Assembly (NCBI GenBank): GCA_002839855.1
Contig: PGYV01000001.1
Location: 229,256-293,255, forward strand
From: Candidatus Goldiibacteriota bacterium HGW-Goldbacteria-1
Lineage (GTDB): Bacteria > Oederibacteriota > PGYV01
Length of the DNA: 64,000 nt
Direction: 5' to 3'
Shown here: piece by piece, positions 28,346 to 31,245 of the stretch
Numbering within the stretch: position 1 is the first letter of the stretch
How the letters are laid out: each line of letters begins with the position of its first letter
Position numbers and translations under genes: made by a program
Notes under the pieces: model-generated
What the model was told of the DNA's origin: nothing
Database searches by the model: none
What the model saw: the letters and a program-made list of their open reading frames with translations, nothing else

Positions 28346-28663
28346 TCAGCAGCAGCCGCTCTTGCCGCCGCCGCAGCACCCTGAATTTGTGTCATCACCG
28401 CAGCCGCACTCTGCTTTGCCGTTTTTTGACCCAAGTATGGCGGCGGCGCAGCCGGGGCCTGTTTCCACGTTTATCGCGCCGTAAGCGCAGTTTACCATGC
28501 ACGCGCCGCATTCAATACACGCGCCCTTATCGGCAAACGCAGCCTTGTTCCCTTCCATCTTAAAAACCCCGCGCGGACACACCTTTACGCACATTGTGCA
28601 TCCCGTGCATTTATCCTGATTGTAACTTATGGAAACCAATTCATCTATGTATCTTAGTTTCAT
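28346..28663 (-). CDS. hgcB: Mercury methylation ferredoxin HgcB
   Basis: CTGCTMCVKVCP and CIECGACMVNC 4Fe-4S motifs, GPGCA, terminal CC. ATG 28663 overlaps the hgcA TGA. Confidence 0.9.
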   Translation of the reverse strand: MKLRYIDELVSISYNQDKCTGCTMCVKVCPRGVFKMEGNKAAFADKGACIECGACMVNCAYGAINVETGPGCAAAILGSKNGKAECGCGDDTNSGCCGGGKSGCC

Positions 28664-29799
28664 ATTATCACCCTCATTATCATCTCTGTAATTATAAGCA
28701 GAACGGAAATTATGCCGCCTGCTGTTATAAAACCAATGGAATCTTTTACCTCTTTTTTCACGCCGGAAATTGATGTGAATGTCGTGCACCCGGTATAATT
28801 CATAGCGGTGAATGAAGCTATAGAGATAATGATAATCACAGATGCCGGCAGCCTTAAATACATGTAAGGCGCGGCTAAGACCCCGGATAACAGCACAAAA
28901 AATATGCTTCCCAGCAACCCTGAGAAAATACCTTTAACTGAAAAATACCTGCCCGGAAGCGCCGGCAGAAGCATAGAAAACAGCACCGTGCCCGACACCA
29001 TTCCGGTCAGCGCGGCGTATAAATAAAACATTCCGCGGTAGACAGCGTCGTACAGAACAAACCCCCTGCTGCTTATCCCCGATAAAACTATTACCGCAAT
29101 CATGGGCCAGAACAGTTTGTCCATTGCCATAACCAGTTCCAGCCACGACACTTCCACCCTGCGCCAAATTGTAAATTCCACAGTCTTCATCGCCGTGTCA
29201 TTTTCCATCCCGTTATCAATAAACTTTTTTATATCGCGCGCTTCTACCGGCCCGAATACCGCCTTAAAACCGGTCTGCCTGCGTATTTCATGCGCGGCCA
29301 CTCCCGGCGCTGACAACAGCGGAAGAATAATATTTTTATGCGTTACCACCATATCAAGTTTGGTTTCTATTATTCTTTTTATAATCTCCGCGTCACAAAA
29401 CGTGCCTTTGCCCGCGGCGCACCAGACATTTACACCCTTGGTGTCAATTACCAGAACCCACGCGTCGATTTTTGCGTCGCGCCTTAAAACATCAAATGAA
29501 AGTTTATAGTTTGCGGACACTAAAACCGGCGAGTTTTCATCCGGCTTACCCACAGCGTATAACCCCGGCGCTATGGCATAATCCATACGCTTAAAGCCAA
29601 GCCGAACCGCAATCTCTCCCATTTTATCGGACAGCTTCCAGTTAAAACCAACTCCCGGAACCACAGATGAATTCGCGGCAGCGCAGCAGCATCCGCCTTC
29701 GCTATCCGGCCCGCGGCTAATAGAATATTCCCCGACTTCTATATATTTAATATCATTTTTTGCCGCCGGCCCGCAGCAGCAATCCTCACCTTTACTCAT
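28660..29799 (-). CDS. hgcA: Mercury methylation corrinoid protein HgcA
   Basis: Cap-helix [27 protein letters not shown], 4-5 C-terminal TM helices and [17 protein letters not shown]. Confidence 0.95.
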
Positions 29800-30833
29800 T
29801 TAAAGCCTCCTTTTAATTTAAACGCCGCATTTACCAGTAAAACCATTATAGGCACTTCTACAAGCGGGCCTATGACAGTGGCAAACGCCTGCTGTGAACT
29901 GATTCCGAATATGGCAATTGCCACAGCAATGGCAAGTTCAAAATCATTGCTGGCCGCAGTAAAAGACACAGCCACAGTCTGTTTGTAATTTGCTCCCATT
30001 TTTTTTGCTATAAAGAAAGTTCCAAACCACATAATCAGAAAATATAATATCAGCGGTACCGCCACAAGCAGCACATCAAGCGGCTGTTTAATAATATATT
30101 CGCCCTTTAACGAAAACATAATTATAATTGTGAATAGCAGCGCGATAAGAGTTAAGGGTGATATTTTTGGTATGAATTTCTGTTCGTACCACTCTGTCCC
30201 TTTTAACCTTAAAAGCGAGTAACGCGTTACAAGCCCCGCCGTAAACGGAATGCCAAGATATATAAGGACCGCCTTTGCGGATTCCCACATGGAAATAGAA
30301 ACATTAATACCTTTTACCAGCCCGAATACGTTTAACAGGACGGTTATAAAAAACCAGATATACACCGCGTAAAAAAGCATCTGCGATACAGCGTTAAAAG
30401 CCACAAGCCCCACGCCAAGTTCGCGGTCGCCCTGCGCAAGGTCGTTCCACACTATTACCATTGCAATACACCGTGCAAGGCCTACAAGAATAACACCTAT
30501 CATATATTCAGGATGGTTACGCAGGAAGAGAACGGCAAGCCCGAACATTAAAACAGGCCCCACCAGCCAGTTCTGGATAAGCGAGAATATAAGGAGTTTT
30601 TTATTGTGAAAAACTTCCCCCATTTTTTCATATTTCACCTTTGCCATAGGCGGATACATCATAAGTATAAGGCCTATCGCAATGGGAACCGATGCGGTGC
30701 CTATCTGCATTGCCGCGACAGAGTTTGTTATAGCAGGAATAAAATAACCGGCAGCTATACCTATTATCATGGCAAGAAATATCCAGACTGTAAGATACCT
30801 GTCAACGAAAGGCAACTTTCTGGCATTTTCCAT
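29796..30833 (-). CDS. acr3: ACR3-family arsenite efflux transporter
   Basis: [41 protein letters not shown] and GPLVEVP. Confidence 0.95.
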
Positions 30834-31177
30834 TATTTACACCTCTTTGAATCGCAGCATGCCTGCGGGGATTTTATGGCGCCTGCTGTTTTTATAGCGA
30901 TAGTATCAGAACCAAGCTCTTTTTTTATAATGATGTTAATGTCTTTAGTCTGATTAGTATCTGAAATTGAATAATAGACCCACATCCCTTTTTTTATATC
31001 CGTGACAACACCCGCGTTTTTTAAAACGTTAAGGGCTTTTGAAACAGCCGCCTGTTTCATTTGAAGTGCGTTTAAAATCTGGCAGACGCACAGCCCGCCT
31101 TTTGCCTGTTTGGACAGGAGAAGTTTTACGATTTTAAGCCTTGTCTCATCCGCGTACGCTTTAAATATTTTAACCAT
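30833..31177 (-). CDS. arsR: ArsR family repressor
   Basis: [32 protein letters not shown] and C-terminal CC. The stop overlaps the acr3 ATG. Confidence 0.85.
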
Positions 31178-31192
31178 TTTTCCTCCTGTATT

Positions 31193-31245
31193 ACTATATG
31201 AACATTTGGTAATATAGTTATACAGGGCGAATCCCCGGATGTCAA
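31193..31245 (-). promoter_or_regulatory. Promoter and inverted-repeat operator of the arsR-acr3-hgcAB operon
   Basis: TTGACA (31240-31245), 17 nt, TATAAC (31217-31222); inverted repeat ACTATAT (31193-31199) / ATATAGT (31212-31218). Confidence 0.7.

Follow-up and report, generated by a model that had tools for sequence, protein, structure and literature searches.

Mercury-methylation genes hgcAB as probable internal cargo of an ArsR-controlled arsenic-resistance operon in a Goldbacteria genome

Introduction

The native function and regulation of hgcAB, the mercury-methylation gene pair, are questions that bear on predicting where methylmercury forms. In a 64,000-nucleotide stretch of contig PGYV01000001.1 (positions 229,256 to 293,255) of Candidatus Goldiibacteriota bacterium HGW-Goldbacteria-1, referred to here as the window, hgcA and hgcB directly follow the arsenic-resistance genes arsR1 and acr3. 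The locus raises the question of whether the methylation pair is controlled by arsenic or only lies beside arsenic genes. The four genes are listed below by window position.

31177-30833, minus strand: arsR1, ArsR/SmtB repressor, 114 amino acids (aa)
30833-29796, minus strand: acr3, arsenite efflux permease, 345 aa
29799-28660, minus strand: hgcA, corrinoid mercury-methylation protein, 379 aa
28663-28346, minus strand: hgcB, 2x[4Fe-4S] ferredoxin partner of HgcA, 105 aa

The gene order, the overlapping junctions and a conserved control region make it likely that this is an ArsR-controlled arsenic-resistance operon carrying hgcAB as internal cargo. Related loci are designated by L numbers.

Results

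Gene order and junctions

Each gene of the unit overlaps the next, by 1 nucleotide (nt) between arsR1 and acr3 and by 4 nt at both the acr3/hgcA and the hgcA/hgcB junction. The letters are TAATG at 30833, where the arsR1 stop meets the acr3 start, and ATGA at 29796-29799 (acr3/hgcA) and 28660-28663 (hgcA/hgcB). The Shine-Dalgarno-like sequences AGAGGTG, AAGGAGG and GAGGGTG precede the starts of acr3, hgcA and hgcB, respectively, each within the preceding gene. An earlier interpretation of the letters, hereafter the sequence-only reading, had claimed the order arsR-acr3-hgcA-hgcB with stop/start overlaps at all junctions, and both the open reading frames (ORFs) and the junction letters agree with it. 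The four-gene operon of that reading stands in its gene identities and overlaps but was incomplete, as it is the first unit of an arsenic island of about 12 genes. A longer hgcB ORF with a GTG start, from 28789, was rejected because neither the HgcB profile nor the relatives back that start.

No terminator was found at any junction of the four genes. Terminator-like sites numbered 14 against 10.6 ± 3.5 expected, and those within the four-gene unit are only weak, chance-level hairpins in coding sequence.

Promoter and operator of the first unit

Three features precede arsR1.

31294-31269, minus strand: terminator-like hairpin that ends the lipoprotein gene upstream, GAACCGCGGGA-GTAA-TCCTGCGGTTC with a T-run after it
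31245-31217, minus strand: predicted promoter P1, with -35 TTGACA (31245-31240), a 17-nt spacer and -10 TATAAC (31222-31217)
31226-31185, minus strand: putative ArsR1 operator, a 20-2-20 imperfect palindrome with a 12-2-12 core (31218-31193)

The hairpin is an inverted repeat whose 17-nt arms are 94% complementary, and it is kept in L001 and L002; it is predicted to be an intrinsic terminator that insulates the ars-hgc operon against upstream transcription. The -35 hexamer of P1 is perfect and the -10 hexamer matches at five of six positions, lacking the usual final T, which is why a consensus promoter scan left P1 unlisted. Across five related loci the TTGAC of the -35 element is invariant, and the spacer has diverged.

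The operator core reads ACTATATTACCA-AA-TGTTCATATAGT. The palindrome overlaps the -10 element and the expected transcription start and extends into the ribosome-binding site; AGGAGG and the ATG follow. When the window was aligned with L001, L002, L004 and L006, a 27-nt operator block, TATATTACCAAATGTTCATATAGTAAT, was invariant between diverged flanks, and HgcA identity among these five loci is only 62-89%. The block is single-copy in the window, where 0 copies are expected by chance, and all its exact matches in two public collections, one of genomes and one of metagenomes, lie in front of arsR-acr3. Searching with the operator for a locus lacking hgcAB yielded only the same metagenome-assembled genome (MAG) and two contigs ending inside acr3. 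The sequence-only reading had described a consensus promoter with an inverted-repeat operator; the operator proved stronger than described, whereas "consensus" was slightly generous for a -10 hexamer matching at five positions.

The four gene products

HgcA scored 375.3 bits with the model NF040863 (equivalog cut-off 275), its residues 48-374 matching profile positions 2-324 of 325. The same protein reached only 188 bits with the fused HgcAB_like model (cut-off 285) and 78 bits with the CdhD gamma model (cut-off 306). Its cap helix NVWCAAGK occupies residues 124-131 (NVWCAAGKG, 124-132), with Cys127 at the position of the cobalt-ligand cysteine, and fits the motif N(V/I)WC(A/S)(A/G)GK; an alignment of 24 homologues shows no variation at W126, C127, G130 or K131. 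Residues 222-379 contain five hydrophobic segments in a Kyte-Doolittle scan, as expected of a C-terminal membrane domain with about five helices. In the phylogenetic tree the protein groups with HgcA of many phyla.

The N-terminal DCCCGP of HgcA (residues 6-11) is the all-cysteine form of the PCUGP motif. The N-terminal motif PC(U/C)GP has a selenocysteine form, and many HgcA proteins are selenoproteins (Haft preprint, bioRxiv 10.1101/2022.07.06.499078). In-frame stop codons occur in the N-terminal regions of several of our HgcA hits (L017, L024, L031, L039, L065 and others), and in L013, L042, L057, L063 and L069 reading an upstream TGA as selenocysteine gives C-U motifs, which fits that report. 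Packed N-terminal cysteines (CCC...CCC) were considered as a mark of ars-linked HgcAs and rejected, since N-termini rich in cysteine or bearing selenocysteine are seen both beside ars genes and away from them; among acr3-linked HgcAs, several from Bacteroidales lack such an N-terminus.

HgcB is encoded by a gene separate from hgcA. Numbered from the ATG at 28663, its cysteines form two CX2CX2CX3C motifs (Cys19/22/25/29 and Cys49/52/55/59), followed by Cys72 and by Cys104-Cys105 as the last two residues. The second motif holds CIECGAC at 49-55, in keeping with the signature C(M/I)ECGA, and the diagnostic HgcA and HgcB motifs claimed earlier were both found. Both genes are maintained by purifying selection, with pairwise ratios of nonsynonymous to synonymous substitution (dN/dS) of 0.12-0.20 for hgcA and 0.07-0.23 for hgcB.

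Acr3 scored 448.2 bits with TIGR00832 (equivalog cut-off 282.8) and has a dN/dS of 0.04-0.12. It contains RCIAM at residue 121 and PLVEVP at residue 323; the cysteine of the former (transmembrane helix 4) and the glutamate of the latter (helix 9) are presumably the residues found essential in mutagenesis work on Acr3. ArsR1 scored 83 bits with NF033788 (cut-off 55) and matches PF01022 with a winged helix-turn-helix (HTH) core. Its alpha-3 motif is G-L-C-V-C-Q at residues 28-33 (Cys30 and Cys32), and a further cysteine pair lies at the C-terminus.

Proposed regulation

Under the proposed mechanism, dimeric ArsR1 bound to the 12-2-12 palindrome would cover the -10 element of P1 and the transcription start and so block transcription. 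As(III), and probably Sb(III), would bind the Cys-Val-Cys thiolates of alpha-3, perhaps aided by the C-terminal cysteine pair, and the repressor would be released. A single mRNA would then encode ArsR1, Acr3, HgcA and HgcB, with ribosomes passed from gene to gene through the 1-4-nt stop/start overlaps, and the corrinoid methyltransferase HgcA and the ferredoxin HgcB would be made only along with the arsenite pump. Read-through into the arsP unit behind hgcB would be possible, as a scan found no terminator-like site between the first and second units of the island. We infer the inducer, the co-transcription, the translational coupling and the methylation of Hg(II) by HgcAB in this host from the gene sequences.

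Several observations weigh against this proposal. The -10 hexamer of P1 is imperfect, and the promoter rules of the host phylum may differ. Weak promoter-like sites lie inside acr3, for example at 29935-29908, and could allow some ArsR-independent transcription of hgcAB. ArsR1 falls below the E. coli ArsR subfamily model PRK10141 (66 vs 97 bits), and sensors of Cd, Pb and Zn such as CadC have the same alpha-3 CVC site, which leaves the inducer unreadable from sequence. The profile check of HgcB was mixed: the match is full-length (1-93 of 93) and the signature cysteines are present, but the score of 92.2 bits with NF040864 is 7 under the cut-off of 99, a small shortfall, and the protein carries an additional tail rich in Cys and Gly. 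In searches of public runs, no RNA run contained the locus, and the matching runs were DNA metagenomes from groundwater, sludge and soil.

The arsenic island and its variants

Beyond hgcB the island continues with a small XRE-type gene and then a second unit, from arsP to arsC.

28330-28302, minus strand: near-consensus promoter TTGACA-17-CATAAT of the XRE-type gene
28265-27942, minus strand: XRE-type HTH gene (PF01381)
27868, minus strand: TTGACA of a second promoter-like site, in front of arsP
27840-27814, minus strand: second palindromic block, TATGCACGATAGCGCATATAAGCATAT, different from the first operator, in front of arsP
27802-26642, minus strand: arsP-family permease (Pfam)
26627-26202, minus strand: DGC-domain protein (Pfam)
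26208-25831, minus strand: arsR2 (Pfam)
25829-25596, minus strand: trx3, small thioredoxin PF13192, ArsE-like (Pfam)
25585-25142, minus strand: trx, exported thioredoxin (Pfam)
25152-24760, minus strand: Cys-rich lipoprotein
24763-24053, minus strand: DsbD/CcdA membrane protein (Pfam)
23975-23550, minus strand: arsC, arsenate reductase of the low-molecular-weight protein tyrosine phosphatase type (Pfam)
23474-23456, minus strand: GC-rich terminator-like hairpin after arsC, CGCGGGTCTTTAGCCCGCG, at the island end

The gene string of the second unit also follows hgcB in L001-L007. Its control region (27868-27814) is kept in the window, L001, L002 and L004, and the second palindromic block is probably the ArsR2 operator. 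L006 has neither arsR2 nor this control region, and its hgcB-arsP gap is 25 bp. The island thus consists of two ArsR-headed units in most variants and apparently forms one long operon in at least one (L006).

Six variants share the order arsR-acr3-hgcA-hgcB, and their junctions overlap or almost abut: the window, L001, L002/3, L004/5, L006/7 and L089. HgcA identity to the window is 89% in L001, 68% in L006/7, 64-66% in L002/3 (a Candidatus Goldbacteria MAG) and 62% in L004/5, and this Goldbacteria-type HgcA clade is monophyletic (SH-aLRT 100). In the nearest outgroup HgcAs that were looked up (L092, L093 and L095), acr3 is also immediately upstream: L095 has arsR-acr3-hgcA-hgcB, L093 has acr3-hgcA with an 8-nt overlap, and L092 has arsR-x-dsbD-acr3 followed by a thioredoxin::HgcA fusion. 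In L094 (Edwardsbacteria), a long acr3...arsP-arsC string ends with hgcAB.

Divergence along the island is uneven. Between the window and L001, synonymous divergence is 0.28-0.50 for arsR1, acr3 and hgcA and 0-0.09 for arsP through trx; between the window and L002, the flanks are about 90% identical and HgcA only 64-66%. The HgcA tree, in which L004 is sister to L006, conflicts with flank similarity. From this mosaic divergence and the conflict between tree and flanks, pieces of the island therefore seem to have been exchanged by recombination among related lineages.

Gene content varies between acr3 and trx3: the window and L001 have hgcAB-xre-arsP-DGC-arsR2, L002 has hgcAB-arsP-DGC, L004 has hgcAB-arsP-DGC-arsR2, L006 has hgcAB-arsP, L089 has only hgcAB, and L096 lacks hgcAB and has a different ArsP-family permease. 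The last locus (3700-8120), obtained through an Acr3 search, lies at the same chromosomal site as the L004 island, after a pentose-phosphate operon, and reads acr3, the different ArsP-family permease, a 20-aa arsR2 remnant and trx3-trx-dsbD-arsC. Its Acr3 is 93% identical to that of L004, 84 bp separate acr3 from the permease gene, and the position of arsR falls in a 100-N scaffold gap. Since the island at the L004 site can lack hgcAB, the pair occupies a slot of variable content within a common arsenic island and was evidently lost or replaced in the L096 lineage.

Linkage was also surveyed from both sides. Among 80 HgcA loci from species-representative genomes, acr3 was linked (same strand, within 6 kb) in 13. 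In 11 of these 13 it lies downstream of hgcB, typically as arsR-hgcA-hgcB-acr3-arsC, and in two it lies upstream without overlap. A further 13 of the 80 have arsR alone directly upstream, and arsP was present in none of the 80. On the HgcA tree this distribution needs many independent changes, and ars linkage therefore arose repeatedly. In the reverse survey, hgcAB was within 4 kb in only one of the 80 closest Acr3 loci, most of which carry the same accessory genes.

These data bear on whether the linkage is physical only, with hgcAB a passenger cassette expressed mainly from a weak internal promoter of its own and methylation not meaningfully controlled by arsenic. The weak promoter-like hits inside acr3 might supply such a promoter, but the hits of the consensus scan stand at chance level (28 found vs 19.9 ± 4.5 expected), and the 4-nt ATGA overlap of acr3 and hgcA, kept in several variants, leaves a dedicated promoter no space. 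A passenger would also fit the variable slot of the window, L001, L002, L004, L006, L089 and L096, the mosaic state of the module relative to its flanks and the rarity of hgcAB near the closest Acr3 genes. Against this, co-regulation appears to be under selection, because hgcAB repeatedly became linked to ars genes in lineages unrelated to one another. We regard the passenger explanation as improbable.

Two elements behind hgcB have counterparts elsewhere. The XRE-type gene, which only the window and L001 have between hgcB and arsP and which is absent in L002, L004, L006 and L089, has an 86%-identical copy elsewhere on metagenome contig L091 (7053-7373); it appears to be mobile or paralogous. 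The hairpin after arsC occurs a second time at 51723-51705, at a distance of 28 kb, and L006 has a similar sequence upstream of its arsR. The hairpin probably represents a repetitive extragenic palindromic (REP)-type repeat doubling as a terminator.

Inducer of ArsR1 and identity of HgcA

The CVC and the C-terminal CC of ArsR1 are kept in all members of the clade. The CVC aligns with the metal-binding ELCVCDI of CadC and Lmo1102, and the third cysteine of R773 ArsR (Cys37) is absent. Two cysteines suffice in R773 ArsR (bioRxiv 10.1101/2022.10.17.512643). Given its score below the PRK10141 cut-off, ArsR1 is an ArsR/SmtB member with an R773-type site and not a close relative of R773 ArsR.

The operon could be as described and ArsR1 could still sense Hg(II), Cd(II)/Pb(II), methylarsenite or S-adenosylhomocysteine (SAH) instead of arsenite. 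The best solved-structure matches of ArsR1 are CadC-type Cd sensors sharing the ELCVC site, but ArsR1, which starts 2 residues before its matched core, lacks their N-terminal arm with its extra cysteines. The regulator of P. mercurii ND132 responded also to SAH-raising treatments (bioRxiv 10.1101/2022.10.17.512643), whereas ArsR1, unlike SahR-type proteins, has no methyltransferase domain. Thiolate sites for soft metals are frequently promiscuous, which favours another inducer; the first structural gene, an Acr3 equivalog, argues for arsenite. Acr3 transports arsenite and antimonite specifically, and the usual inducer of an autoregulated ars operon is the substrate of its pump. Another inducer therefore seems unlikely; from the place of acr3 at the head of the structural genes, As(III)/Sb(III) is inferred to be the most likely one.

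On sequence evidence it is hardly credible that the corrinoid protein is a CdhD/AcsC protein or a fused HgcAB-like paralogue rather than a true HgcA, for although Pfam detects only its CdhD domain and the public annotation of one relative reads "acetyl-CoA synthase subunit gamma", the NF040863 score against the two sub-cut-off scores, the cap-helix cysteine, the five membrane segments, the separate hgcB and the grouping with HgcA of many phyla all point to HgcA. The case that the sequence-only reading had named as its own refutation, a CdhD/AcsC or fused hgc-like protein, therefore does not apply.

A possible role of HgcAB in arsenic detoxification

A further possibility is that HgcAB of this deep-branching clade is a working part of arsenic detoxification and not a mercury enzyme that is merely nearby. 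HgcAB, made only with the arsenite pump, would then carry out a corrinoid-dependent change of a thiol-bound metalloid, such as methylation of As(III) or of thio-arsenic species, and the adjacent ArsP-family permease would export the product, aided by the small ArsE-like thioredoxin. The pointers are the position of hgcAB exactly between acr3 and arsP and the thioredoxin::HgcA fusion behind acr3 in a sister lineage (L092, P0008). The work on P. mercurii ND132 found the wild type more tolerant of arsenate than the hgcAB deletion mutant, and it found no methylated arsenic in the cultures, which argues against such a role. We consider this role improbable.

The fusion protein itself (L092:6001-7335, P0008) has a PF13192 ArsE-like thioredoxin joined to the HgcA N-terminus; it is 444 aa long, is 49% identical to the HgcA of the window, and its gene overlaps the upstream acr3 stop by 4 nt. 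In L089 a small PF13192 thioredoxin gene comes directly after hgcB. The L092 fusion and the L089 adjacency hint at a physical partnership between the small thioredoxin and HgcA.

Host and neighbourhood of the island

The genes flanking the island, among them those for a GH9 cellulase, an oxidoreductase and a lipoprotein, share about 90% identity with their counterparts in a Candidatus Goldbacteria MAG, in line with the cellulolytic, probably candidate-phylum host proposed by the sequence-only reading. That reading had also noted no mer genes in the window. This was borne out for the approximately 50 window ORFs scanned with Pfam, none of which belongs to a mer-type family; most small ORFs were outside the scan. 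No Rfam match, to a cobalamin riboswitch or any other known RNA, occurs anywhere in the window.

About 26 kb (32004-57000) separates the arsenic island from a pentose-phosphate operon (57263-62572), and this segment contains a type IIG restriction-modification gene, a Dam-like methylase, toxin-antitoxin pairs, an AAA_14/DUF4143 ATPase and the GH9 cellulase. In L004 only one small gene lies between the pentose-phosphate operon and arsR. At 39178-41145 the window encodes a 655-aa protein with a class I S-adenosylmethionine methyltransferase domain and an ATP-grasp domain of the D-Ala-D-Ala-ligase type; a resemblance to ArsM is not apparent.

Discussion

The locus of the window establishes no new principle, yet it is among the cleanest natural cases of the arsenic link. 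Transcription from P1 would reach hgcAB only after passing through the pump gene acr3; the cysteine site of the repressor is classical, conservation defines the operator to the base, and the sister island lacking hgcAB serves as a comparison. This layout would permit arsenic control to be tested by reporter constructs or electrophoretic mobility shift assays without culturing the host. Candidatus Goldbacteria (Goldiibacteriota), cellulolytic bacteria of groundwater and sludge, would be added to the putative methylators; in the open literature we found no paper that names Goldbacteria as hgcAB carriers or mentions mercury methylation for the phylum. The locus suggests that arsenic-bearing anoxic groundwater could induce methylation capacity in such organisms.

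The association of hgcAB with arsenic genes has been published for several systems. In metagenome-assembled methylators hgcAB is flanked by acr3, arsC, arsM and arsR (McDaniel 2020, mSystems, PMC7438021, Fig. 6), arsR-like regulators with acr3 or arsC adjoin transcribed hgcA genes (Peterson 2025, Environ Sci Technol, PMC11984097, Fig. 4c), and hgcAB contigs from rice paddies carry ars genes (PMC10349881). The sequence-only reading was right about the linkage of hgcA with arsR-type genes and about acr3 standing between them but overstated the novelty, given these published flanks and the recurrence of the linkage among the 80 surveyed HgcA loci. As in the McDaniel and Peterson loci, hgcAB in the window shares its strand with an arsR-like regulator and acr3, with arsC nearby, and the hosts are uncultured anaerobes of candidate or little-studied phyla. 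Unlike those loci, the window has acr3 between arsR and hgcA with overlapping codons, and a unit with an arsP-type permease follows hgcB.

In P. mercurii ND132, hgcAB is controlled by an arsenic-responsive ArsR-like regulator (Gionfriddo 2023, bioRxiv 10.1101/2022.10.17.512643; Goni-Urriza 2020). The arsR2-hgcA-hgcB locus of ND132 resembles the window in that an ArsR/SmtB repressor comes first and is co-oriented with hgcAB. The ND132 regulator is co-transcribed with hgcAB, controls the pair and responds to As(III) and As(V). The ND132 hgc locus has no other ars gene, while ArsR1 heads a real acr3 operon. The metal sites differ as well: the ND132 regulator has an unusual four-cysteine site (Cys47, 49, 86 and 88), and ArsR1 has the alpha-3 CVC and the C-terminal CC. 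The arsenic-induced arsP-ArsE-DGC "operon C" lies elsewhere in the ND132 genome, and its equivalent directly follows hgcB in the window.

Classical arsR-acr3-arsC operons of anaerobes share with the window the regulator type, the pump equivalog and the arsP, thioredoxin and DsbD accessories; in the window, unlike in these operons, hgcAB is inserted between acr3 and the remainder. The locus is thus a clean, conserved example of the published mercury-arsenic linkage and not a new kind of system. What is particular to it is the pump between the repressor and hgcA, the arsP gene downstream, the sharply defined operator and the Goldbacteria host.

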